A stretch of DNA of 62,884 nucleotides, filler included, from an uncultured bacterium (GTDB taxonomy: Bacteria; CAZSTA01): the NCBI GenBank assembly GCA_964609495.1. It is 13 parts of 13 records of this genome, joined end to end, with 100 filler letters (N's around TTAATTAATTAA, not from the genome) between each part and the next. Parts side by side here need not be neighbours in the genome. Positions count along the whole stretch, not along the records: positions 44,563 to 49,141 come from CAZSTA010000247.1; 12 more parts are not named here. One strand, given 5' to 3'. This document shows, piece by piece, positions 1 to 58,535 of this stretch. A program made the position numbers and the translations under genes. The first letter of the stretch is position 1. The number at the start of each line of letters is the position of its first letter. Under the pieces are notes generated by a model. That model saw only the letters and a list, made by a program, of their open reading frames with translations, was not told where the DNA came from and searched no databases.

Positions 1-1
1 T

Positions 2-484
2 CAGGATCTCTTAAATCTTAGCAGAAAACTCAAGGTCTCAGCCGCTACAGATCCTGCTTGGTCGCCCGAGGGAAGACGCATCGCCTTTGTATTGAATCGA
101 GATGGCGATCGTGATATATTCATAGCCAATGCCGATGGAACGGGAGATGTTCAACAGCTCAAGGCTGATTTAGGGGGAGATGATATAGATCCCTGTTGGA
201 CCTCCGATGGAGAGTCCATAGTTTTCAGTAATTTTGGGACTAGTAAGGCTGGTATCTGGAGGATGAGCATAGATGGGAAGGAGTTACAGAGACTTAGTGA
301 TCACCCTACGGATGATGACCCTAATTGTTCCCCCGATGGAAAGATGATAACCTTTAACCGTAAAGTAGGTGGAACTAAAGAGGGAGAGGAGATACTTGTA
401 ATGAATATAGATGGGAGTGGAAAGCGGGTATTAACTAGCAATAATGTAGCAGATGATAATTCAGTTTGGTCTCCTCATCACTGA
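2..484 (+). CDS. TolB-like/PD40 beta-propeller protein, 5'-truncated
   Basis: Frame is open from the window start; repeated PxWSPDG-type blades (PAWSPEG, PCWTSDG, PNCSPDG, SVWSP). Confidence 0.85.
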   Translation, partial: QDLLNLSRKLKVSAATDPAWSPEGRRIAFVLNRDGDRDIFIANADGTGDVQQLKADLGGDDIDPCWTSDGESIVFSNFGTSKAGIWRMSIDGKELQRLSDHPTDDDPNCSPDGKMITFNRKVGGTKEGEEILVMNIDGSGKRVLTSNNVADDNSVWSPHH

Positions 485-506
485 TTTGGAAAAAGGAGAG
501 GGAAAG

Positions 507-1379
507 ATGAAAGAGATAGAATTCCTTAAAATGAGTGGAGCAGGTAATGACTTCATCGTCATAGATAATCGAGAGGGGATCATCACACCTGATAATATAG
601 GAGGGATTAAGGGGGAGATTCTTCCCCTATCGGAGTTCATCAGGCGAGTCTGCACCAGAAGATGGTCGATCGGTGCTGATGGCTTGATGTTGCTTGAGAA
701 ATCGGATAAAGCGGATTTCAGGATGAGATACTTCAACTCCGATGGGGGAGAGGCTGAGATGTGTGGCAATGGCGCTCGCTGTATCGCTCGTTTCGCCTAT
801 TTGAAGGGAGCGGCTTCCAAGAAGATGTCTTTTGAAACGATCGCCGGGTTCGTCTCTGCTGAGATACTAGAGGGTGGAGTTAAGATCGGAGTTGATGCAG
901 TTGATAACGTTGAGTTGGAGCTGAAACTTGCTCTGGAGGATGGAACTTCTATAGTAGGACACTATATAAGAGCAGGAGTTCCTCATACTGTGCTTTACGA
1001 GGATGATGTGAGTGGGGCAAGGGTAGTTGAATTGGGAAGAAGAATAAGATATCATAAACACTTTCCTCGAGGGACTAACGTCAATTTCGTCCAGATATTA
1101 AGTGAGGGAGAAGTCAAGATCAGAACTTATGAGAGAGGGGTAGAAGATGAGACGCTAGCTTGTGGGACGGGAGCAGTTGCGTCTGCGGTATTATCCACTC
1201 TCTTGGGTAAGGCTAAACCGCCGATTCTACTTCATGCCGTAGGGGGGGATCTAACGGTTGATTTCAAATGGCAGGATGGAGATGGAGGAGATCTCTCCTC
1301 TATAAGCGAGGTATCATTAACTGGTGATGCGAGAGTGGTTATGAGGGGAAGGATAGGTGAGGAAACTTGGCAGTGGTAG
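507..1379 (+). CDS. dapF: diaminopimelate epimerase
   Basis: KMSGAGNDF, IGADG, NSDGGEAEMCGNGARC, GVPH, GTNVNF and RTYERGVEDETLACGTG motifs; ATG at 507 follows an AGGAGAGG SD. Confidence 0.95.
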   Translation: MKEIEFLKMSGAGNDFIVIDNREGIITPDNIGGIKGEILPLSEFIRRVCTRRWSIGADGLMLLEKSDKADFRMRYFNSDGGEAEMCGNGARCIARFAYLKGAASKKMSFETIAGFVSAEILEGGVKIGVDAVDNVELELKLALEDGTSIVGHYIRAGVPHTVLYEDDVSGARVVELGRRIRYHKHFPRGTNVNFVQILSEGEVKIRTYERGVEDETLACGTGAVASAVLSTLLGKAKPPILLHAVGGDLTVDFKWQDGDGGDLSSISEVSLTGDARVVMRGRIGEETWQW

Positions 1380-2608
1380 AGAACAGAATAATAGCTAAGT
1401 TCGGAGGGACTAGCGTAGGGAATGGCGAGAGGATTCGGCTGGCGGCCCGCTCGATAGCCGACCAGGTCAGGGAAGGTAAGGAGGTAGTAGTTGTTGTCTC
1501 CGCGATGGGGAAATCCACCGACGAGTTACTAAACGCTTTGGCAGGCTCTACCGAGAGTTCCTATGGACCAGATGATATGGTCGATGTGGTCTCTATGGGG
1601 GAGAGAACGAGCATCAGGGTAATGGCCGCGGCTCTTCGCAGTCTAGGGGTCAAAGCCGAATATGTTGAGGTGGCGATGGGGGAGTGGCCAATCATCACTA
1701 CCTCCAAAGCAAGTGGGGCGGAGGCGATTATCTCCAAGACTCAAGAGATGTGTCAGAAGTATTTAGAGGTTTGGTTAGAAGAGGGAATAACTCCTGTAGT
1801 CTGCGGCTTTCTAGGTAAGGATATGGAGGGAAATCTGACCACTTTGGGAAGAGGAGGAAGTGATACTACCGCTTTTATCCTTGGGAAATGCCTTCAGGCT
1901 TCGGAGGTTATAGTAGTTACAGACGTGGATGGAGTTCTCTCAGCAGATCCTCGTCATATAGGTGAGGCGCAGATGTTATCCACGATCACGGTGGAGGAGA
2001 TGAATATTCTGGCTAGCAAGGGAGCCAAGGTGCTTCATCCTAACGCCCTAAGATATAAGACCCCAGAGATGAAGGCTAAGATAGTTCACTTCAGGCATGG
2101 GGATCTAAACGCGCCGGGAACGGAGATCGTGGGTTTTCCTCAGCAGGAAGTGATCTTGCAGAAAGAGAGGTTATCTACAGTCACTATTGTGGGAGAGAAA
2201 ATTCTGCAAACTCCTGGATTGCTAAGCAAGATATCACGCGCTTTAGCCGATGAGGAGATCTCTATCTATGATTGTGCGGTAGGAACAACTTTCTTGGGGT
2301 TATATGTAGAGGCGGAAAAAGCTAAACGCGCCTGTGATATCCTTCATCCGATAGTTTTAGAGGATACTAATCTTAAATCCTTGACGGTCACTAATGATAT
2401 CGCGATGATCATAGCTAAAAGCTATGGATTCATCGAGACCCCTGGGGTGATCTCTAAGCTGACTGCCCCGCTAGCGGAGAGGGATATCAATATAATTGAG
2501 ATGGTGACCATCAAGACGGATATTATGATCTTCATCAATTGGGAGGTGCGTGAGGAGGCTTATCGCCTCATCAAGGATGTGTTTTCGAGGGGCGATGAGC
2601 GATCCTAA
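1367..2608 (+). CDS. lysC: aspartate kinase (kinase domain + 2 ACT domains)
   Basis: KFGGTSV, VVVVSAMG, TTLGRGGSD, TDVDGV and GAKVLHP motifs; overlaps the dapF stop. Start codon uncertain (TTG 1367 or GTG 1373). Confidence 0.92.
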   Translation: MAVVENRIIAKFGGTSVGNGERIRLAARSIADQVREGKEVVVVVSAMGKSTDELLNALAGSTESSYGPDDMVDVVSMGERTSIRVMAAALRSLGVKAEYVEVAMGEWPIITTSKASGAEAIISKTQEMCQKYLEVWLEEGITPVVCGFLGKDMEGNLTTLGRGGSDTTAFILGKCLQASEVIVVTDVDGVLSADPRHIGEAQMLSTITVEEMNILASKGAKVLHPNALRYKTPEMKAKIVHFRHGDLNAPGTEIVGFPQQEVILQKERLSTVTIVGEKILQTPGLLSKISRALADEEISIYDCAVGTTFLGLYVEAEKAKRACDILHPIVLEDTNLKSLTVTNDIAMIIAKSYGFIETPGVISKLTAPLAERDINIIEMVTIKTDIMIFINWEVREEAYRLIKDVFSRGDERS

Positions 2609-2672
2609 AACTAAACTTGATAATCTATAACTATAAAATTTATAATATAAAATAAAAGGGGGTTTGAAGGTT

Positions 2673-3560
2673 ATGTTGAAATTACAAGGGTCTTATGTAG
2701 CTATGGTAACTCCGTTCACTAAGGATGGGGAGATTGATAGAGAGGGAATTAAAAGCCTCGTCGAATTTCATATCACGAATGGAACTGATGGACTGGTCCC
2801 TTGCGGATGCACTGGAGAGGCGGCTACGCTCTCCCATGATGAGCAAGAGGGAGTAATTGAATTGGTGGTTGAGACCGTCGCGGGCAGGATCTCGGTCTTG
2901 GCAGGAACCGGGTCCAACAACACTAAAGAGGCGATTAGACTGACTAAATTCGCAGATAAGGTCGGGGCAGATGGGGCGATGCTTATCACTCCCTACTACA
3001 ATAAGCCCACCTCTGAAGGACTATATCGACACTATAGCACTGTAGCGGAGGGCGTTGATATCCCAATAGTTATGTATAACGTTCCCAGCCGAACAGGGAT
3101 AAGTATGGCCCCTGAGGTTGTAGCCAAATTAGTAGAAGACGTTGATAATATCGTGGGGATAAAAGAGGCTAGCGGAAGTTTGAGTCAGATCTCTCAGATA
3201 TTAAATATCTGTGGAGATAAGATAATCCTTATGTCGGGAGACGACTCTCTGACCTTGCCTATTATGGCTGTAGGGGGAAAAGGCGTTGTATCCGTGGCGG
3301 CGAACATAGCCCCTAAGGATGTTGCCGATATGACGGCGGCTTATCTCAAGGGCGATTTGGAGAAGGCACGGCAGTTGCATCACAAGCTCTTCCCCTTATT
3401 TAAAGTTTTGTTCATCGAAACTAATCCGATGCCAGTAAAGGCGGCGATGAATATAATGGGATTGCCTGCTGGAGAGCCTCGTCTTCCTCTTACTCCTTTA
3501 TTGGAGAGCAATATCCCTAAATTAAAGAAAGTTATGGAGGGTTGCGGTCTTCTGAAGTAA
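2673..3560 (+). CDS. dapA: 4-hydroxy-tetrahydrodipicolinate synthase
   Basis: VTPF, GCTGE, TPYYNKP, YNVPSRTG, catalytic GIKEAS, SGDD and ETNP motifs; lies in the dap operon. Confidence 0.95.
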   Translation: MLKLQGSYVAMVTPFTKDGEIDREGIKSLVEFHITNGTDGLVPCGCTGEAATLSHDEQEGVIELVVETVAGRISVLAGTGSNNTKEAIRLTKFADKVGADGAMLITPYYNKPTSEGLYRHYSTVAEGVDIPIVMYNVPSRTGISMAPEVVAKLVEDVDNIVGIKEASGSLSQISQILNICGDKIILMSGDDSLTLPIMAVGGKGVVSVAANIAPKDVADMTAAYLKGDLEKARQLHHKLFPLFKVLFIETNPMPVKAAMNIMGLPAGEPRLPLTPLLESNIPKLKKVMEGCGLLK

Positions 3561-3571
3561 GGGGTGTGAGT

Positions 3572-4000
3572 ATGATGAGTGGGAATAAAGTTTTGCGTCT
3601 CATAGCTCTAGCTCTAGTCTGTATTTGGTTGATCGTCTGGGCAGTTAATTTGATCATACCCTTCGATAACTATCTATCTGGGGGATCCTCCTTAAGGGAT
3701 ATAGCCGCCCTCGTTTTTTTGGGGATTATCTTCTCTCTGGTGTATTTCTTCCGCAGGAGGAGAGTGAGGGAGATAGAGAACTTGCGGAAGAAGGATATTA
3801 AGAAGCTCATAAAGGAATTAGCTCTGCGAAGGGGTGGCAAGTTGAGATCCTCTGAGGTAGCGGAGGCTCTGGATCTCGCTATAGGTGAAGCGGAGAAGAT
3901 CTTGGGAGAGATGGTCATTGAAGGGACTATGTCCATCAAGATAACTGAGGGGGGAGCGGTCATCTACGAATTTGTGGAGAGCATTGAAAGCAATTTATAG
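3572..4000 (+). CDS. hypothetical membrane protein, 2 TM helices + winged-helix-like C-terminus
   Basis: Two hydrophobic segments, then GGKLRSSEVAEALDLAIGEAEKILGEM...GGAVIYEF; packed tightly between dapA and dapB. Confidence 0.7.
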   Translation: MMSGNKVLRLIALALVCIWLIVWAVNLIIPFDNYLSGGSSLRDIAALVFLGIIFSLVYFFRRRRVREIENLRKKDIKKLIKELALRRGGKLRSSEVAEALDLAIGEAEKILGEMVIEGTMSIKITEGGAVIYEFVESIESNL

Positions 4001-4003
4001 GGG

Positions 4004-4813
4004 GTGTCTGAATTGATCAAGGTTATTGTCAGCGGGGCTTGTGGACGTATGGGGTCCAGGGTAGTCGCGGCTGTTAATAAGCAGGAGGATATGGGGTTGA
4101 TAGGAGGATTAGAGGCAGATGTTAATGTGGGAAGGGATATCGGGGAGGCCGCTGGCTTGGGGAACATAGGATTAAAGGTCAGCGGAGATTTGGGGAAGAT
4201 AGTAGATAGGGCTGATGTCTTGGTGGAATTCACCAATCCCGAGACCTCGCTTGGACATCTGCGAGATGTGGTTAAGCATAACAAAGCGATGGTTTTGGGG
4301 ACGACTGGCTTCTCCGATGATCAGATGAGGGAGATCAAGGAGTTGACCAAAAATATCCCCTGTGTTATGGCTCCGAATATGTCAGTGGGGATCAATGTCC
4401 TTCTGAAGGTCGTCGCCGATCTAGCCAAGTGGCTTGGAGATGAATACGATATAGAGATCGTAGAGACACATCATCGCTTCAAGAAGGATGCCCCTAGTGG
4501 TACCGCTAAGAGGATAGCCCAAGTCTTGGCTAGTGCCTACAATCGAGATCTCGGCGAGGTGGGTGTCTATGGCCGTCAAGGGATGATAGGGGAGAGGAGC
4601 GGAGATGAGATCGGTATCCTCGCCATCCGAGCTGGAGATACTGTCGGCGATCATACAGTTATATTTGGAGGGATCGGAGAGAGATTGGAGATCACCCATC
4701 GAGCGCACAGCAGAGATACCTTCGCCTATGGGGCGATTCGAGCGATTCGCTTTGTCACCAGCGCTCGTAAGGGTCTCTATGATATGCAGGATGTTTTAGG
4801 GATTAAGGATTGA
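4004..4813 (+). CDS. dapB: 4-hydroxy-tetrahydrodipicolinate reductase
   Basis: GACGRMG, GTTG, APNMSVG, ETHHRFKKDAPSGTA and HRAHSR motifs. Confidence 0.96.
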   Translation: MSELIKVIVSGACGRMGSRVVAAVNKQEDMGLIGGLEADVNVGRDIGEAAGLGNIGLKVSGDLGKIVDRADVLVEFTNPETSLGHLRDVVKHNKAMVLGTTGFSDDQMREIKELTKNIPCVMAPNMSVGINVLLKVVADLAKWLGDEYDIEIVETHHRFKKDAPSGTAKRIAQVLASAYNRDLGEVGVYGRQGMIGERSGDEIGILAIRAGDTVGDHTVIFGGIGERLEITHRAHSRDTFAYGAIRAIRFVTSARKGLYDMQDVLGIKD

Positions 4814-4885
4814 CATACTCCAACGACTGAAGGTCTTCGGATTCTAGGTCCAAGTTGTAACCTCATACTAATTGTCAAAGAACTA
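4810..4885 (-). mobile_element. possible non-autonomous IS200/IS605-family end remnant
   Basis: Minus strand of 4810-4845 reads AGAATCCGAAGACCTTCAGTCGTTGGAGTATGTCAA, like the GAATCC-hairpin-GTCAA right ends of tnpB elements; no transposase is present. Confidence 0.5.
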
Positions 4886-4974
4886 GGTATAGTATAAAAG
4901 GTGATATTGTTAAGTGTTTTTACTTCTGCCTATTGGTCTTTGCCGAATTAATGGGACTATTGAAGATTTTTCTC

Positions 4975-5048
4975 CTGTTAGATCTCGAACCCACCTTAGA
5001 TAAAGGAAACTTTTGCCGGTAACAAAACTCAAGGTTCAAAAGTTTCCT
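4975..5048. repeat. composite repeat with ~50-bp MITE-like unit (TAAAGGAAACTTTT...AAAAGTTTCCT), cut by the contig end
   Basis: Close reverse-complement match to 22775-22847. Confidence 0.8.
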
Positions 5049-5148
5049 NNNNNNNNNNNNNNNNNNNNNNNNNNNNNNNNNNNNNNNNNNNNTTAATTAA
5101 TTAANNNNNNNNNNNNNNNNNNNNNNNNNNNNNNNNNNNNNNNNNNNN
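5049..5148. other. artificial contig linker, first of 12 (others: 10083-10182, 15083-15182, 20059-20158, 24976-25075, 29893-29992, 34807-34906, 39648-39747, 44463-44562, 49142-49241, 53796-53895, 58347-58446)
   Basis: Identical 100-nt N run with a central TTAATTAATTAA (stops in all frames); flanking contigs decrease in length. Confidence 0.98.
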
Positions 5149-10082: not shown

Positions 10083-10182
10083 NNNNNNNNNNNNNNNNNN
10101 NNNNNNNNNNNNNNNNNNNNNNNNNNTTAATTAATTAANNNNNNNNNNNNNNNNNNNNNNNNNNNNNNNNNNNNNNNNNNNN

Positions 10183-44562: not shown

Positions 44563-45336
44563 TTGGTAACCCAAGCTCTGATTAAGGAGTATAATGAGGG
44601 AACTCCAGAAGAGAAGAGGAACTTGGTAAATATCGAAACTACTTGGAATCAGATGACCAGCGCTTCTAAGGAGGAGAGAGAAGGCTTAAGAATTATGCTT
44701 GCTCAGTATTTGCTAGGAGAGGCTCAAAAAGATCCAAACGATCCCTTGTCAGCTATGATCATAGAGGTCTATAACAAGACGAATACGATCTTAGTCCAGG
44801 ACACACCTCCTTTCACTCAGCAATCTCTTGATGCTTTCGTGGAGATGTTCCAATTCACTATCTCCGTTATCACTGGACAAGAGCGTCAGTTCTCTCAGGA
44901 GGAGATAAACGAAATCGCTAAAAGTATCATTACCGCTTATCCCACCTATCCCCCCGAAGTGAAACAATTCTTCTCTCAATCCGATCTTGCTTGGACCATA
45001 ATTCGCTATGCTTGGAGTCAAGCAGATGGAGCTCAACGAGCAGTGCTCATCGATCAGCTAACTCAACTCTTCTTTGGAACTACTAAGGATAATCTGGTGG
45101 CAGATGCCTCGGCAAAGGTATCCGAACAGATGCCAACAGATACGGGAGAGATAAGCAGTGCTGACCTTCTCGCTAAACAACAGGAATTGATGGATCAACA
45201 GCTGAACTTCCAAATGCAGATGAATATACTTAATATGCAACATGAGATGTCTATGAGTATCATCAATAATATGCCTGGAGGCGGCGGTATGGTGTATGGA
45301 TATGAAGATTCGTATGGAACTTTCTGGGAGTATTGA
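44563..45336 (+). CDS. hypothetical helical protein, 5'-truncated, Gln/Met-rich C-terminus
   Basis: Long ORF with host-like codon use; no family recognised. Confidence 0.7.
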   Translation: MVTQALIKEYNEGTPEEKRNLVNIETTWNQMTSASKEEREGLRIMLAQYLLGEAQKDPNDPLSAMIIEVYNKTNTILVQDTPPFTQQSLDAFVEMFQFTISVITGQERQFSQEEINEIAKSIITAYPTYPPEVKQFFSQSDLAWTIIRYAWSQADGAQRAVLIDQLTQLFFGTTKDNLVADASAKVSEQMPTDTGEISSADLLAKQQELMDQQLNFQMQMNILNMQHEMSMSIINNMPGGGGMVYGYEDSYGTFWEY

Positions 45337-45397
45337 TCCAAGAGGGAGAGATCTTCCCCCTATATTAATGCGATGAGACAAGAAAGGGTGTGATTCG

Positions 45398-46411
45398 ATG
45401 CAAGCAGTAGTATTTGATAAGGTAAGGAGCATTAAGATCAAGGAAGTTGATACTCCTAAACCTGGGCCTAAAGAAGTTCTGATAAAGGTGAAAGCTGGAG
45501 GGATATGTGGCACAGATGTTCACATCTATGAGGGCGATTTTATCGCGAATTATCCTCTTATTCCCGGTCATGAGTTCTCAGGAGTAGTGGAGGAGGTGGG
45601 AGAGGAAGTAACCAATTTCAAGAAAGGAGATCGGGTAGCTGTTGATCCTTCTGTTTACTGCCATGATTGTTATTTCTGCAAGACTAATAGAGGGAATCAC
45701 TGCTTGAACTGGAATGCATACGGAGTTACTTTAGATGGGGCTTTCGCCGACTACGTTGTTGTTCAGTCGCCCAGTGTTTATCCCATAGGTGATTTGAGCT
45801 TCGAGGAGGCTGCCTTTATCGAACCAATATCCTGTGTAGTATATGGATTGCGTCGTCTCAAGGTCAGAACTGGAGATGAGGTGTTGATCTTCGGCTCAGG
45901 TGCGATTGGGTTATTGCTGATGCAATTGATCAAGCATGGCGGAGCCTCGAAAGTTGTGGTAACTGATCTTAAGGAGAAGAGATTGAAGATAGCTGAGTCC
46001 TTAGGAGCTCACGCTACAGTGGTCGCTGATGCTTCGCAGGAGAAGAAGCTGAGGGATATGGCGCCTTTGGGATTTGATGTGGTGGTCGATGCTACGGGAG
46101 TGCCTAAAGTCGTAGAGGGGATGTTCAAATATATCAAGCCTACTGGTAAAATTCTAGTATTTGGTGTTTGTCCTAATGATTCACAGATATCCGTGAATCC
46201 TTTTGAAGTCTATAAGAAGGATTTAGAGATATATGGATCATTTGCCCTTTGCTACACCTTTGATCCCGCAGTGAGATTGCTTCAGAATAAGGTTATCGAT
46301 ATCAAACCTCTCCTCTCTCATACTATGGGATTAAGTGATTTCCCGAAGGCTTTTGAGATGATTATGTCTGGCAGTGGAGAAGCGATGAAGATTCAGATCC
46401 AACCTGAGTAG
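45398..46411 (+). CDS. zinc-dependent alcohol/polyol dehydrogenase (MDR family)
   Basis: GICGTD, GHEFSG, C..C..C.......C structural zinc, GSGAIG motifs. Confidence 0.93.
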   Translation: MQAVVFDKVRSIKIKEVDTPKPGPKEVLIKVKAGGICGTDVHIYEGDFIANYPLIPGHEFSGVVEEVGEEVTNFKKGDRVAVDPSVYCHDCYFCKTNRGNHCLNWNAYGVTLDGAFADYVVVQSPSVYPIGDLSFEEAAFIEPISCVVYGLRRLKVRTGDEVLIFGSGAIGLLLMQLIKHGGASKVVVTDLKEKRLKIAESLGAHATVVADASQEKKLRDMAPLGFDVVVDATGVPKVVEGMFKYIKPTGKILVFGVCPNDSQISVNPFEVYKKDLEIYGSFALCYTFDPAVRLLQNKVIDIKPLLSHTMGLSDFPKAFEMIMSGSGEAMKIQIQPE

Positions 46412-46435
46412 ATTCCGATTTCACAGTTAGAGGAT

Positions 46436-46472
46436 AAGCTCCCCCGATATGTAGATTCGGAGGAGCTTTCTT
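46436..46472 (+). terminator. terminator after the dehydrogenase gene
   Basis: AAGCTCC.CCGA...TCGGAGGAGCTT followed by TCTT. Confidence 0.6.
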
Positions 46473-46540
46473 ATTATAGCTCCTTCTACTTCTATGATAG
46501 CTTATACCTGCCTGTCCTGTTTTAATTTTTCATCTAGCTA

Positions 46541-46569
46541 TTGATTATGACTCAATTTTCTGATATAAT
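46541..46569 (+). promoter_or_regulatory. promoter of the three-gene HEPN operon
   Basis: TTGATT-N17-TATAAT with extended -10 TG. Confidence 0.75.
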
Positions 46570-46653
46570 GTAAACAGTTAAATATCAATTCGATTGGAGA
46601 CTTCAAGCCTATAATCTGTATTTGATCTTAGACGACCGAGGAGGTCTGAATTA

Positions 46654-47412
46654 ATGGGTAGGAGATATAAGAATCCCCCGATTATTGAGGCTGTATGCGA
46701 ATTTCGATTCGAGAGAGGTTCTCCCTGGGATCTTACTATCCCTGGTCTCATTTATGAAAAGGTGCGGGATGGCTTTCCTAAAAGAAAACAAGCTAAACAA
46801 GTCCAAATCGAGATCTCAGCAGTGACAGAAGGCTTAGAACAGCAAGTTACAACGACGGACAGAATGCGGTTTTTGCGCGAGGATGAAAAGGTTCTTATTC
46901 AGGTTGGGCCAGATCTTTTGGCTGTTAATCATTTGAAACCCTATCCCTCATGGAGAGAATTCCAACCTTTGATCGAGAAGGGATTTAAGGCCTACAGTGA
47001 AACCACGAATCCTAAAGGTATCCGCCGTATTGGACTGCGATATATTAATCGTATCGAAATTCCTAATCAAGGTGAATTGAAAGATTATTTCTCTTTCTAT
47101 CCATTCATAGGGAAAAATTGGGGGGAAATTTTGCCTCAGAAAATTAATTCATTTATCTCTGGAATCCAGATCCCCTATGAGAATTCAAGGGATATCTTAA
47201 GGCTCAAGTTAGGAAGTGCCAGAGCCGAAACATCTGATACCAGTGGGGTGATTCTCGACCTTGACTATTTTCTCGCTGAATCGGAAGATGTTCCCCTAGA
47301 TAAAAAGAAAGTTTTTGAATGGATAAATTTTGCCCATAATCATATCGAAGAGGTATTTGAAGCCTGCATTACAGATCGATTAAGGCAGATGTTTGAGGAG
47401 GTAAAGGAATAG
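46654..47412 (+). CDS. TIGR04255-family-like protein (function unknown)
   Basis: Signature-like YKNPPIIEAVCEFRF, YPSWREF, RIGLRYINRI, ILDLD and H...EEVFE..IT motifs; GAGGAGG SD. Confidence 0.85.
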   Translation: MGRRYKNPPIIEAVCEFRFERGSPWDLTIPGLIYEKVRDGFPKRKQAKQVQIEISAVTEGLEQQVTTTDRMRFLREDEKVLIQVGPDLLAVNHLKPYPSWREFQPLIEKGFKAYSETTNPKGIRRIGLRYINRIEIPNQGELKDYFSFYPFIGKNWGEILPQKINSFISGIQIPYENSRDILRLKLGSARAETSDTSGVILDLDYFLAESEDVPLDKKKVFEWINFAHNHIEEVFEACITDRLRQMFEEVKE

Positions 47413-47853
47413 ATGCCACAACAACAAGTGGAAAACCGAATACCATTGCTAACGCCTCTAGTTGCACCTGCTGTGATGGCCTGGCAAGAGATAGATGGCA
47501 CTTCTATTACTACGCTCGTCTCAGAGGACGATATCCAATTGCTTGAGATACTGTATGTCTTCAGAGGACAAGAGGAGGTTTTAGAGTTTCTTGAGAGATA
47601 CCCTTTTCTTGTTTCTTTATTGATTGAGACTCATAGTAAAATTGAAAATTATTTTGAACTATATCCCCAGGTATTTCTTGAAGTCTTCACCGATCCAGAA
47701 GCAATTGATGATCGTCAATTAGTAGCTTCTATCCGCACGAATCTCACTCCGAATGAGGTTCTCGATAAACTTGATCGGTTAGATGAAGAATGGTGGTTAG
47801 ATAATATGGATAGAGCCAGAGGTAAATTCTGTATAGATGTGGAGTTTTTATGA
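47413..47853 (+). CDS. hypothetical acidic protein, putative HEPN partner
   Basis: ATG directly follows the upstream TAG and the stop overlaps the HEPN ATG; core EVLEFL...P.L..LL......I..YF...LEV..DPE...LDEEWW. Confidence 0.7.
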   Translation: MPQQQVENRIPLLTPLVAPAVMAWQEIDGTSITTLVSEDDIQLLEILYVFRGQEEVLEFLERYPFLVSLLIETHSKIENYFELYPQVFLEVFTDPEAIDDRQLVASIRTNLTPNEVLDKLDRLDEEWWLDNMDRARGKFCIDVEFL

Positions 47854-48227
47854 GTTTCGATTGGTCTGAGTATCTCAAACTAGCGAGAGAGCTCGCAGGG
47901 CAAACTACTACTCCTTCGAATCAGGATGCTAAATTACGTTCTGCAATCAGCCGTGCTTATTATGCAGCTTTCTGCAAGGCACAAAATCATCTCCGTTATA
48001 AAGAAGGACATAAAATCCCTAAGAGTGGTAAAGCCCATACCTATGTTTGTGATGAATTCAAGAATAGCTTTGATAAGTCCCGAAAGGGGATTGGGAATAG
48101 ACTAGACCAATTACGGAAACATCGGAAGAAGGCTGACTATGAAGATGTATTTACGGGGCTATCCTCTACAGCCAGTCTAGCTTTGAAGCTTGCTGGTCGA
48201 GTAATCTCTGCGCTGAATAACCTTTGA
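47850..48227 (+). CDS. HEPN domain protein
   Basis: FDW.EYL.LA, RSAISRAYYAAF, conserved His (KAH) and LRKHRKKADY motifs. Confidence 0.85.
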   Translation: MSFDWSEYLKLARELAGQTTTPSNQDAKLRSAISRAYYAAFCKAQNHLRYKEGHKIPKSGKAHTYVCDEFKNSFDKSRKGIGNRLDQLRKHRKKADYEDVFTGLSSTASLALKLAGRVISALNNL

Positions 48228-48269
48228 ATCTATATCTGATCGCTTAGATATAGATTAGTCAATAGTGAG

Positions 48270-48303
48270 ACCAGCCACAATAAGATAGTGGCTGGTATTT
48301 TAT
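48270..48303 (+). terminator. rho-independent terminator closing the HEPN operon
   Basis: ACCAGCCAC-loop-GTGGCTGGT followed by ATTTT. Confidence 0.7.
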
Positions 48304-48411
48304 CTTTTGTGAGTTATAATAGTATATTCTCCCTATAGCCCGGCACTCTTTGCTCGCGCCCTTCATTTAGTTGAAACTTTTAACTCCCCAAATCTTATAT
48401 ATAGCTAAGAC

Positions 48412-48515
48412 AACCTTAAAGATTCTCAATTGTAGGAAAGATATGCCTTGATTGCTTCGGACGTATACCTTCAAGGAGGTGTACACAATGAAACACTATA
48501 AGTTAGTTTTGTTAG
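48412..48515 (+). repeat. direct repeat (leader + SD + signal-peptide start); second copy at 49021-49141
   Basis: CTTAAAGA.TCTCAATTGTAG.AAAGATATGCCTTGAT...AAGGAGGTGTACA.AATGAAACACTATAAGTTAG in both copies. Confidence 0.85.
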
Positions 48516-49000
48516 CCGTATGTATCCTAGGTCTTTTGATGTTCGGAGGCATTTGCGAGCCCGGACCAGGAGGAGGTTATGGGCCAGATCTAGTGGTAAC
48601 TACCTTTGTGACCATAGGCCCTCCCACTTTGAACTTCGATGAGAAAGCGGAAGTACCCATTCGCGTCATAGTCAAGAATCAGGGCACTGTCGAAGCTGGT
48701 ATCTTCAGGGTAGGCATAGAGAAAGTGAATACTGATCCTTATGAGGACGTAGTTCAATTCAGTGTTCCAGGGGAATACAATAGCTTTTTTCCCATTACAA
48801 AAGCTCCACTGGCTTTAGGAGCAACTGTCACCTTCGAAGGAAAAGCAATCTTCGCCCATGGTGAACATAATATTACCCTTTCCCTGAAAGCTGTCGCTGA
48901 CAGTTGCGAGGGTTTGTCGAATCCGACCATAGGATGCATGGTAAAGGAAGCCAACGAGGACAACAACGAATCTACTCAAATATCAGTATCAATACCCTGA
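48488..49000 (+). CDS. secreted/lipoprotein with CARDB (Ig-like) domain
   Basis: MKHYKL...MFGGIC signal; PDLVV, VKNQG, VAD, E.NEDNN pattern; AAGGAGGTG SD. Confidence 0.8.
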   Translation: MKHYKLVLLAVCILGLLMFGGICEPGPGGGYGPDLVVTTFVTIGPPTLNFDEKAEVPIRVIVKNQGTVEAGIFRVGIEKVNTDPYEDVVQFSVPGEYNSFFPITKAPLALGATVTFEGKAIFAHGEHNITLSLKAVADSCEGLSNPTIGCMVKEANEDNNESTQISVSIP

Positions 49001-49109
49001 TTGTTGGGATCTTCTTACTCAATCTTAAAGAGTCTCAATTGTAGAAAAGATATGCCTTGATCGTTTTGGAAGCGTTAGGCATATACCTTTATTTAAGGAG
49101 GTGTACATA

Positions 49110-49141
49110 ATGAAACACTATAAGTTAGCTTTGCTATTAGT
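49110..49141 (+). CDS. start of a paralogous secreted protein (MKHYKLALLL...), cut by the contig end
   Basis: Same SD and first six codons as the gene at 48488. Confidence 0.6.
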
Positions 49142-49243: not shown

Positions 49244-50332
49244 GCAAAACCCAATCAACCCCCCACAAAGCCAACGATAACTGCTTCTGCTACCACAGTG
49301 AAGTCAGGAGGAATAGTCAATCTCACTGCTTCGGCAACGGATCCCGATGGTGATACTCTGACTTACACTTGGAGTGCAGATGGGGGAAGTTTCAGTTCTA
49401 CGACTGGGGATATTACGACTTGGACCGCACCCTCGGTGCTAGGGGATAAGAGTTATACGATAAGTGTAGAGGTAAGTGATGGAAAGGGAGGGAAGAATAA
49501 CAATAGTGTAGCTATCTCAGTTATGTCCTCCCAAATCGCTTTCGACTCCCAGCGGGATGGAAACTGGGAGATTTATATAATGGATGCTATTGGAGCTAAC
49601 CAGACTAGATTAACTAATAATCCTGCTGAGGATGAGAATTCAGCTATTTCTCCTGATGGGAGTAAGATCGTTTTTGTATCCAAGCGGGATGGAAATAGGG
49701 AGGTCTATGTGATGAATGCGGATGGGACTTCGGTGACTAATCTTACTAACAATCCTGCTTATGATGGATTCCCTGATTGGTCACCGGATGGCACCAAGAT
49801 CGCTTTTGTGTCTGATCGGGATGGGAACTTCGAGATCTATGTAATGAACTCAGATGGCTCTAACCAAACTAGGCTCACTAATAATACTACTGTTGATAGT
49901 TTTCCAGCTTTCTCTCCCGATGGCACCAAGATCGCTTTCGAGTCCAATTGTCCAAGGGAATTCGATATTTACATTATGAATAGCGATGGTTCTCTTCCCA
50001 CTAATCTGACGAATACTCCTACGAAGCTCGACGAAACTCCTGCTTGGTCCCCAGATGGGAGTAAGATCGCTTTTACATCCAATCGGGGGGGGGATTTTGA
50101 GATCTATTACCTGGATGTTTCCAATCCAACTCTTCAAGTTAATCTAACCAATAGCCCTGGTTCACGGGAGTGGGGTGCCACTTGGTCGCCTGATGGGAGC
50201 AGAATTGCCTTTGCATCTAATCGGGATGGGAATTATGAGATCTACTCGATGAAATCCTCGGATGGGAGCGATCAGACTAGATTGACTAATAATAGTGCGG
50301 ATGATAAACTTCCCGATTGGTCCCCTAAGTAG
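49244..50332 (+). CDS. Ig-like (PKD-type) domain + TolB-like beta-propeller, 5'-truncated
   Basis: NQPP...ATDPDGDTLTYTW...VSDGKGG, followed by repeated RLTNN....P.WSPDG.KIAF.S.RDG blades. Confidence 0.88.
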   Translation, partial: AKPNQPPTKPTITASATTVKSGGIVNLTASATDPDGDTLTYTWSADGGSFSSTTGDITTWTAPSVLGDKSYTISVEVSDGKGGKNNNSVAISVMSSQIAFDSQRDGNWEIYIMDAIGANQTRLTNNPAEDENSAISPDGSKIVFVSKRDGNREVYVMNADGTSVTNLTNNPAYDGFPDWSPDGTKIAFVSDRDGNFEIYVMNSDGSNQTRLTNNTTVDSFPAFSPDGTKIAFESNCPREFDIYIMNSDGSLPTNLTNTPTKLDETPAWSPDGSKIAFTSNRGGDFEIYYLDVSNPTLQVNLTNSPGSREWGATWSPDGSRIAFASNRDGNYEIYSMKSSDGSDQTRLTNNSADDKLPDWSPK

Positions 50333-50414: not shown

Positions 50415-51323
50415 ATGAGGAGATTAGCTATATCATTAATGATCTTAGGGATAATCCTCTTGGTAGTGGCGATAGGATGTGATAATGGTATCTTTGGGAG
50501 GTGGCACTTTAAGATCGCTTTCCAATCCGATCGGGATGGGAATTACGAGATCTACCTAATGGATTCCACGGGAGCTGACCAAACTAGATTGACTAATAAT
50601 CCTGATTGGGATTGGGATCCAGCTATTTCTCCTGATGGGAGGAAGATCGCTTTTATGTCCGATCGGGATGGGAATAGTGAGATCTATGTGATGAATATTG
50701 ATGGGACTTCCGTGACTAGGCTTACCAATAATCCCGCGTATGATGGAGAGCCTGATTGGTCCCCAGATGGTGCCAAGATCGTTTTTACGTCCAGGCGGGA
50801 TGGGAACTATGAGATTTATTCGATGAACTCGGATGGCTCTAACCAAACTAGGCTTACTAATAATCCTGCTCGGGATTGGTTTCCAGCTTTCTCTCCCGAT
50901 GGCACCAAGATCGCTTTTCAATCCGATCGTTCCCAGAGATTCGATGTTTACATTATGGATAGCGATGGCTCTCTTCCCACCAATCTGACGAATAGTCCCC
51001 TCGTCGATGAACTTCCTGCCTGGTCTCCAGATGGAAGTAAGATCGCTTTCGACTCCGAACGGGATGGGAATTATGAGGTCTATTACCTAGATGTCTCCAA
51101 TCCAACTCTTCAAGTTAATCTGACCAATCAATCTGGTTCAGATGAGTGGGCTTCCACTTGGTCACCTGATGGGAGCAGAATTGCCTTTGTGTCTGATCGG
51201 GATGGAAATAGGGAGATCTATTCGATGAATGCCGATGGAAGCGATCAGACTAGATTGACTAATAATGGTGCGAATGATGAACTACCCGATTGGGGGAAGG
51301 GGTGGATTATTATCATTGACTAA
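50415..51323 (+). CDS. TolB-like beta-propeller lipoprotein
   Basis: Lipobox AIGC; PD40-type blades closely similar to the upstream gene. Confidence 0.88.
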
Positions 51324-58321: not shown

Positions 58322-58535
58322 CCTCGCTCCAAATATAAATAGTTGANNNNNNNNNNNNNNNNNNNNNNNNNNNNNNNNNNNNNNNNNNNNTTAATTAATT
58401 AANNNNNNNNNNNNNNNNNNNNNNNNNNNNNNNNNNNNNNNNNNNNATTCTCAAGTTGAGAGAGTCGCCACTCCGATCTCATACGAAAATTCTTCCGTAT
58501 CTTATCAGAAGGCAACTCTCTCTGATATATACCCT

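Follow-up and report, generated by a model that had tools for sequence, protein, structure and literature searches.

We analysed a stretch of 62,884 nucleotides from an uncultured bacterium (GTDB lineage Bacteria; CAZSTA01; assembly GCA_964609495.1), hereafter the window, and in it an operon that encodes a TIGR04255 family protein, an acidic protein of an unnamed family (MID) and a small HEPN protein. The window strings together about 13 contigs of a single assembly, with paired 44-base runs of N at the joins (5049-5148, 10083-10182 and so on to 58347-58446), and gene neighbourhood across these joins is not real. Positions 1-5048 map to one contig. The three-gene operon lies on a contig of 4579 bases (CAZSTA010000247.1), which corresponds to window positions 44563-49141. 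The following features were placed on it.

46654..47412, plus strand: lead gene, TIGR04255 family protein; open reading frame (ORF) of 252 amino acids (aa) with an NCBIfam match.
47413..47853, plus strand: MID, acidic protein of an unnamed family; ORF of 146 aa, residues 1-39 forming an extension and residues 40-146 the core.
47850..48227, plus strand: HEPN protein of the PF05168 class; ORF of 125 aa, with SRAYY at residues 34-38 and RKKADY at residues 92-97.
46541..46569, plus strand: promoter-like site, TTGATT, 17 nt, TATAAT, with TG before the second hexamer; 10 of 12 positions match.
48227..48256, plus strand: A+T-rich 13-bp hairpin directly 3' of the HEPN stop codon, found by folding.
48270..48310, plus strand: terminator-like hairpin with a T-rich tail, found by folding; ACCAGCCAC, a 9-nt loop and GTGGCTGGT.

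The first-pass annotation of the window had described three translationally coupled ORFs, and the ORF calls and both junctions bore this out. The TAG stop codon of the TIGR04255 gene (47410-47412) is followed immediately by the ATG of MID at 47413, and the MID and HEPN genes share an ATGA overlap at 47850-47853. Shine-Dalgarno-like runs were found before each start: GAGGAGGT at 46638-46645 upstream of the TIGR04255 ATG and again at 47395-47402 before MID, and TGGAG at 47840-47844 before HEPN.

The lead protein matched TIGR04255 with 168.5 bits (cut-off 30, E 2.2e-49), residues 4-247 aligning with positions 1-251 of the 252-position profile, and a search of the genome recovered this match again. 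The third protein matched the Pfam family HEPN (PF05168; 25.6 bits, gathering threshold 22, E 1.4e-5, residues 27-124) and, weakly, the PADLOC model HEPN_IX (20.7 bits, E 8.7e-5). This weak row was all that PADLOC-DB v2 returned, the TIGR04255 protein and MID being blank, which agrees with the earlier view of the operon as a candidate undescribed system. No paper describing a TIGR04255-MID-HEPN cassette was found by title or abstract among those listed, supplementary tables lying outside that search; nor did a literature search find a paper naming TIGR04255, supplementary tables, which could mention the family, again being out of its reach.

In the HEPN family (57 sequences), S34, R35, Y37 and R92 were invariant, and H63, D96 and Y97 were conserved in at least 90% of the members. 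The SRAYY and R..ADY motifs picked out at first pass are thus present family-wide. The second motif reads R-[NK]-x-[AV]-D-Y, and none of the 57 sequences has a histidine at that place; the catalytic-type R-x4-6-H motif is absent, and the conserved histidine H63 lies elsewhere. The conserved tyrosine next to the arginine motif, which is the AMP acceptor place in type VII systems, is Y97. The family profile matched the solved HEPN 9xbd at E 2.6e-6, and the nearest solved chains, 9xbd and 9xbc, differ by Y to F at the matching tyrosine. Anantharaman et al. 2013 (PMC3710099) describe PF05168 as 'HEPN-T', a class that in several cases has D for H while another H is conserved elsewhere, and that clusters with restriction-modification operons; the missing motif histidine and the conserved H63 of the window HEPN fit the PF05168 note in Table 1 of that paper. 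The same paper reports that motif-less HEPNs from pairs with a minimal nucleotidyltransferase (MNT) were still toxic in a genome-scale screen, and that some motif-less HEPN domains are probably non-catalytic. In DUF86-type systems, the MNT AMPylates the tyrosine adjoining the HEPN motif, according to PMC7641770 and PMC13000451.

The loss of the canonical histidine raises a different interpretation of the whole cassette, namely that it is no toxin system, the HEPN being a non-catalytic RNA- or ligand-binding subunit, and that the three proteins form a regulatory or stress-response complex. The probably non-catalytic state of motif-less HEPN domains in places (PMC3710099) would suit this interpretation. 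However, the same paper gives both the toxicity of motif-less HEPNs from MNT pairs and the retention of another histidine by PF05168 members with D for H, a residue that corresponds here to H63. The sporadic distribution of the cassette, its tandem copies, and the restriction-modification and other defence-type genes found near it (see below) likewise argue against a purely regulatory complex, which we consider distinctly unlikely.

The genome to which the window belongs gave 17 NTP_transf_2 matches in 3.8 Mb, and it is therefore rich in HEPN-MNT-type modules. One of them, at L164:1021-1764 (contig C25), is a 248-aa MNT-HEPN fusion with an intact GS...DxD and the HEPN motifs SRAYY and RQIADYE; its HEPN is 30% identical to that of the window.

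MID gave nothing in Pfam, NCBIfam or PADLOC at E≤1 beyond chance-level rows, its profile gave only chance rows against the PDB, and only 'hypothetical' clusters were returned from the ESM Atlas. A word-indexed search found 24 relatives at E≤1e-3; their common core is about 105 residues long, and their N-termini vary. HMMER, run over 1.84 billion representatives, found 5148 clusters at E≤1e-3 and 3452 at E≤1e-10, indicating that MID is a large unnamed family. In the AlphaFold model, the predicted local distance difference test (pLDDT) score was above 90 for residues 38-146, an alpha/beta core, and below 50 for residues 9-27. The low-structure N-terminal extension that had been put at about 40 aa was therefore recovered, at 39 aa. 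The contrast between an acidic middle protein and a basic HEPN also held: the isoelectric points are 4.14 for MID and 9.84 for HEPN, with medians of 4.76 and 9.37 in their families. In L096, L099, L100, L102, L121, L056 and L036, one locus holds two or three MID-HEPN pairs in tandem, or a tandem series of MID genes on their own.

MID occupies the place of the MNT upstream of HEPN. The GS-x10-DxD motif is absent from MID, and at E≤1 none of 70 MID members matched a nucleotidyltransferase family in Pfam. When the MID profile was compared by hhalign with seven MNTs from its own genome, the probability was 0.7%, and Foldseek returned nothing for the MID core at E≤1e-3. On these grounds MID was rejected as an MNT by sequence, in agreement with the first-pass annotation, which had noted the lack of the GS...DxD motif. 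A wide structural aligner gave a top Z of 5.8 for the MID core; about 20 of the 50 listed rows were Pol-beta-type nucleotidyltransferases, at Z 5.6 or lower, including the 93-residue minimal nucleotidyltransferase 1ylq_B (Z 5.6, 71 residues, root-mean-square deviation (rmsd) 3.1). These rows and the gene position would be expected if MID were a decayed MNT, a pseudo-enzyme, the HEPN-MNT system having turned from chemical to purely steric neutralisation. However, all of the Pol-beta rows score below Z 6, unrelated folds score the same or higher, and the motif, Pfam (0 of 70), hhalign and Foldseek results are all negative. We regard such a decayed origin as unlikely.

The predicted model of the TIGR04255 protein (pLDDT 86, predicted template modelling score 0.85) is a two-lobed antiparallel sheet backed by helices. 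The best Foldseek rows in the PDB were AdoMetDC, RepDE, TBP and McsB, at E of about 1e-4 and template modelling (TM) scores of 0.37 or lower. With the wide aligner, the McsB protein-arginine kinase domain 8wtc_C scored Z 8.1 over 177 residues (rmsd 3.9), phosphagen kinases scored Z 7-8, and AdoMetDC and TBP were near Z 6; the aligner's own note describes Z 7-8 as the usual best score for models without a true match, reflecting common arrangements. SecB was not among the 50 listed rows of either search, and absence from such a list does not exclude the fold. Among viral models, the best was A0A515MGR4, an unnamed protein of 202 aa (TM 0.49/0.60), and the others were TBP- or VETF-like. Eleven positions, P9, P42, F73, Y97, F103, L128, R129, Y130, N132, D202 and F235, were kept in at least 80% of 30 TIGR04255 proteins with 18-63% identity.

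The kinase rows, the conserved polar set Y97, R129, Y130, N132 and D202, and the HEPN tyrosine that is AMPylated by MNTs in related systems (PMC13000451) could be read together as the signs of an enzyme. TIGR04255 would then covalently modify HEPN or MID in the role of the nucleotidyltransferase of type VII HEPN-MNT systems, with MID as an adaptor. We give this proposal a low probability: the Z scores are those usual for models without a true match, AdoMetDC, RepDE and TBP reach similar scores, inspection showed no nucleotide-binding motif, and the family serves cassettes with unrelated third genes, as described below.

To assess conservation, we took the best 80 genome loci of the 87 confirmed MID relatives and the best 80 metagenome loci of 269. 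The three window proteins, together with profiles made from their matches, served as queries against the ORFs of these 160 loci, which gave 170 MID copies; room for a downstream HEPN was defined as at least 350 bases. HEPN lay directly downstream of MID in 132 of the 157 copies with room, mostly with a 4-base overlap. On the upstream side, where 146 copies had room, a coupled TIGR04255 gene immediately preceded MID in 54. These 54 include an identical metagenome copy of the window operon (L082), a fusion (L005) and a remnant (L007); 49 copies were left after identical MID cores had been removed, some loci being near-duplicates. Among the 135 copies with room on both sides, 45 were triads, 70 had MID and HEPN without TIGR04255, 3 had TIGR04255 and MID only, and 17 had neither. 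We concluded that the conserved core is the two-gene MID-HEPN pair and that TIGR04255 is an optional third part. The triad proposed from the window is thus no incidental adjacency, since it recurs in coupled form.

The junctions were compared in 58 TIGR04255-MID arrangements. In 35 the start codon followed the stop codon directly, and 9 had ATGA overlaps in another frame; the stop codons were TAG in 26, TAA in 17 and TGA in 15. The pattern therefore reflects coupling and not read-through. Read-through of the TAG between TIGR04255 and MID was ruled out by the varied stop codons and the nine out-of-frame overlaps. Judged from record titles, about ten phylum-level groups have the triad, with Chloroflexota, KSB1, Verrucomicrobiota, TA06, Nitrospirota, Thermotogae, Bacillota, Sumerlaeota and Deltaproteobacteria among those named.

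A different family of about 210 aa (A5) holds the same coupled upstream position in 25 loci, mostly from ANME-type and other archaea. Neither Pfam nor NCBIfam gave a match for it. One A5 member has an ESM Atlas model that aligned over 205 residues (TM 0.84/0.75) with a cluster auto-named 'putative TIGR04255 family protein', and hhalign of A5 against TIGR04255 gave a probability of 0.2% in both comparisons. The non-significant hhalign alignment sets GLNF and NFNY of A5 over the conserved GLRY and LDLDY of TIGR04255. A shared fold of A5 and TIGR04255, suggested by this one model, is a lead and not a result.

A related cassette was found on the megaplasmid pTB1 of Thermus brockianus GE-1 (NZ_CP016313.1). 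L205:3001-4692 holds a TIGR04255 gene (44% identity), a 147-aa hypothetical protein and a HEPN ORF (L205:4285-4692, E 3.4e-32) that is unannotated in the PLSDB gene table, which is incomplete, so that the original record may annotate it. The 147-aa middle protein looks by eye like a divergent MID and was missed by the MID profiles. The cassette adjoins a DNA methylase, a CopG-VapC pair and cas6. In a KSB1 metagenome-assembled genome, L005:2773-3288 encodes P0017, a 170-aa protein that NCBI names 'TIGR04255 family protein', in which the first approximately 65 TIGR04255 residues are joined to the MID core by an apparently in-frame deletion across the junction; no HEPN follows it. With regard to fused forms, twenty long MID relatives had no NCBIfam match. 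Searches for 'longer' relatives with the MID alignment and with one family B middle protein (described below) found nothing, which the tool itself rates as weak evidence.

We next compared the N-terminal extension of MID with the state of the upstream partner. The median number of residues before the core was 73 with TIGR04255 upstream (n=54), 101 with A5 (n=25) and 28 with neither (n=74), the last being an upper bound because the longest ORF was taken. The difference from the copies with neither was significant for TIGR04255 (Mann-Whitney p 2.7e-10) and for A5 (p 2.2e-7). An extension of at least 55 aa was found in 65 of 73 copies with a partner versus 15 of 64 without, and in the 'neither' group several of the copies with a long extension are preceded, in tight coupling, by other ORFs (147-269 aa). 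The window extension (39 aa) is the minimum among the TIGR04255-linked copies. On a quick maximum-likelihood tree of 152 distinct MID cores, the partner state changed at least 29 times, compared with 58.7 +/- 2.9 times with shuffled labels, and at least 24 times when TIGR04255 was set against the rest. The partner state is therefore inherited, yet often gained or lost. Eight well-supported independent contrasts were available; on average 4.7 went the same way, 0.8 went the opposite way and 2.5 showed no difference (median p 0.22). The association of extension and partner is thus strong in the raw counts and is not established independently of ancestry. Three extension motifs were defined after the sequences had been viewed: M[PTAS][YHSN] at the start, F[PLS]L[PLRTF], and W..x[GN]xS. 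They were present, in that order, in 35, 19 and 25 of 50 TIGR04255-linked copies versus 12, 0 and 4 of 69 unlinked copies.

TIGR04255 was found in 33 of 401 sampled Chloroflexota genomes, in 47 of 401 Cyanobacteria genomes and in none of 14 model genomes. We examined 61 TIGR04255 loci in two sets (31 + 30); L176, whose genome is marked as unpublished, is among them, and dropping it changes nothing. TIGR04255 again comes first and is followed tightly by two genes, whose families vary. MID and HEPN followed in 8 loci, all in the first set of 31, and another middle gene with HEPN in 1; an 'SQxCD' third-gene family was present in 31, a 'family B' middle in 17 and a 97-aa middle in 8. Middles with a helix-turn-helix (HTH) domain were found in 10 loci, with matches to the Xre-like antitoxin HTH PF20432 (E 6.4e-5, L217) and to HTH_17 (E 2.4e-6, L177). 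TIGR04255 is therefore a constant lead gene for shuffled two-gene sets, in which the middle member often looks like an antitoxin.

The 'SQxCD[IL]' third genes (L207-L236, L177-L198), which are the most frequent third genes behind TIGR04255, encode unnamed proteins of 150-320 aa without a Pfam or PADLOC match, and they have at least three middle-gene families as partners. Family B middles matched the C-terminal third of PDC-M32A weakly (best E 4.1e-9), and their third genes matched PDC-M32B, also weakly (best E 4.9e-8); PDC-M32-like cassettes led by TIGR04255 lie at L185:486-1477, L199:2244-3041 and L179:449-1495. On the Rhodococcus aetherivorans plasmid pRaL13e (L206:2983-4444), a MobF relaxase gene is followed at once by a TIGR04255 gene that overlaps one annotated as a 'transcriptional regulator', and insertion sequence elements occupy the place expected for the third gene.

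These distributions bear on whether TIGR04255 is a passenger, that is, an unrelated mobile gene that often lies upstream and has no functional tie to the two-gene MID-HEPN module. The 70 of 135 fully informative loci that have MID and HEPN without it, the repeated changes of partner state on the MID tree (at least 29, or at least 24 for TIGR04255 against the rest) and the quite different downstream genes that it heads elsewhere are all compatible with a passenger. However, the 35 stop-start junctions among 58 and the 9 ATGA overlaps extend across many phyla, the long MID extension occurs mainly where the partner gene is present, TIGR04255 is first and tightly coupled in the other cassettes too, and copies with the same partner state group together on the tree much more than shuffled labels do (29 versus 58.7 +/- 2.9 changes). 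We therefore consider it very unlikely that TIGR04255 is a mere companion of the pair.

The surroundings of the cassette were examined both in the window and across the sampled loci. The first-pass annotation had proposed a dedicated extended -10 promoter, a closing terminator and an insertion between unrelated genes. The promoter pattern is present, but it is not above chance by itself, as 3 promoter-like sites were observed in the region versus 5.9 expected in shuffles. Folding of 48225-48310 gave two hairpins at -31 kcal/mol (z -5.2 for the whole stretch), the second being a G+C-rich ACCAGCCAC/GUGGCUGGU stem followed by a U-rich tail, as in a terminator; a simple terminator scan found none at the operon, probably because its loop limit is 8 nt and the hairpin loop has 9 nt. 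The 4579-base contig of the operon carries three neighbouring genes, which encode an unknown protein of 257 aa, a zinc alcohol dehydrogenase and a weakly CARDB-like protein, and the claim of insertion between unrelated genes reaches no further than these three. On a different contig of the window, two paralogous ORFs (49298-50332 and 50415-51323) seen in the ORF list are rich in 'SPDG.KI.F.S.RDGN.EIY' repeats and look by eye like TolB/PD40-like beta-propellers.

A type III methylase and its ResIII restriction subunit flank the triad in 9-12 loci, a placement that fits the restriction-modification note on PF05168 in Table 1 of PMC3710099. One such methylase upstream of a triad (L026:12-3047) also had DUF559/REase_MTES_1575, Hint/intein-splicing and PKD matches, which suggests an intein-bearing, multi-domain protein. 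The neighbours were run against PADLOC in locus order, covering 125 of 369 proteins in 39 of 127 loci, and generic kinase, ankyrin and primase-like matches were left uncounted. Restriction-modification matches were found in 6 loci (L025, L026, L030, L034, L035 and L038), and other defence-type matches in L008 (SoFic), L018 (MkoA), L022 (MzaA), L028 (QatA/PDC-S20), L039 (mad3), L041 (PDC-S03) and L042 (OLD/HEC-01A). As these were counted without a background control, the defence-gene neighbourhood is suggestive only. The cassette possibly serves in defence, and an anti-phage role would be one form of this.

Taken together, we propose that the cassette is self-contained and toxin-antitoxin-like and encodes a HEPN toxin, a non-enzymatic neutraliser (MID) and a third part (TIGR04255) that is chaperone- or sensor-like and works through the MID extension; we regard this prediction as evenly balanced between right and wrong. 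HEPN would be the effector: it keeps the motif arginine, has Asp-Tyr in the place of the histidine and carries a conserved histidine elsewhere, and it most likely binds or cuts RNA. MID, in the MNT position and without transferase motifs, would be the cognate neutraliser; most likely its alpha/beta core, which is strongly acidic, binds the basic HEPN directly and so blocks it. TIGR04255 would act on MID through the disordered N-terminal extension. It could stabilise or hold the antitoxin like an addiction chaperone, or it could couple release to a signal like a sensor.

Several observations weigh against this proposal, in which each binding step is a prediction. RNase activity of HEPN is uncertain because the canonical histidine is missing, and TIGR04255 is not required for the pair, since it is absent from most MID-HEPN loci. 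The fold matches of the TIGR04255 model (McsB and phosphagen kinases, AdoMetDC, TBP) are weak and mixed and point to no role. Shared ancestry could explain much of the raw association between extension and partner, given the eight contrasts and their median p of 0.22. The window extension strictly fits none of the three motifs, which were themselves defined post hoc. The link of A5 to TIGR04255 depends on one automatic structure match, with hhalign at 0.2%. The MID-HEPN pair was on no plasmid searched with MID as the query. Finally, no TIGR04255-MID fusion of normal length was found, and the only fusion, P0017 (L005), is a deletion product.

A broader version of the proposal can be formulated from the re-use of TIGR04255. 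Bacteria and archaea may share a large class of three-gene cassettes, as yet undescribed, that TIGR04255-fold proteins constantly lead. One accessory protein, a new addiction chaperone or a trigger sensor, would serve shuffled neutraliser-effector pairs in this class and would do so by gripping the disordered N-terminal extension of the middle protein. In that case MID would be a major HEPN-inhibitor family with thousands of clusters, which has replaced the nucleotidyltransferase. The pairs observed behind TIGR04255 include MID-HEPN, Xre-type middles with the 'SQxCD' family, and PDC-M32-like pairs. We put this version forward tentatively, as a possibility that is more doubtful than probable.

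Here, a PF05168-class HEPN is paired with a large unnamed partner family (5148 clusters), predicted to be non-enzymatic, and often with TIGR04255. If the proposal is true, it would provide the first functional context for TIGR04255 and a new HEPN inhibitor family, MID. It would also be a second, unrelated case of one accessory protein that serves many toxin-antitoxin pairs, so far known from SecB-type chaperones. The plasmid copy in the cultivable Thermus brockianus makes the cassette testable.

HEPN-MNT modules are considered some of the most abundant toxin-antitoxin systems, and their accepted logic is chemical, the antitoxin AMPylating the toxin. The window cassette resembles HEPN-MNT (HepT-MntA, type VII) in that a small HEPN lies downstream of its partner with an overlap and keeps a conserved tyrosine beside the arginine motif. 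In addition, the same PF05168 'HEPN-T' class pairs or fuses with MNTs, as stated in PMC3710099 and as seen in the genome of the window itself. Unlike the MNT, MID is not a nucleotidyltransferase by motif, Pfam or profile, and neutralisation would therefore not proceed by AMPylation. About a third of the loci have a third coupled gene, and the window HEPN has R-x3-D-Y in place of R-x4-6-H. An earlier example of a HEPN toxin whose upstream partner, in the place of the MNT, is another kind of protein is the dyad of the MAE_18760 HEPN with a ParA/Soj ATPase, described by Anantharaman et al. 2013 (PMC3710099). That dyad differs in its HEPN family and in its ATPase partner; MID has no NTPase motifs or family matches. 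PDC-M32, a PADLOC candidate with two genes (A and B), is like the middle and third genes of sister TIGR04255 cassettes and unlike the window cassette, whose three proteins do not match it; PDC-M32 is itself a candidate system only.

In SecB-type toxin-antitoxin-chaperone (TAC) systems, one chaperone serves several unrelated antitoxin-toxin pairs, and a disordered antitoxin extension is known only together with the chaperone gene. These systems would be the closest analogy to our cassette. The accessory protein of the cassette is TIGR04255, encoded first and not last, and SecB is not among its listed fold matches. The extension is N-terminal in the cassette and C-terminal in TAC, and a chaperone role for TIGR04255 is proposed by analogy. 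Three features observed in the cassette are nevertheless those of TAC: there are three genes, the accessory protein is shared by unrelated pairs, and the extension tracks the accessory gene in the raw counts.

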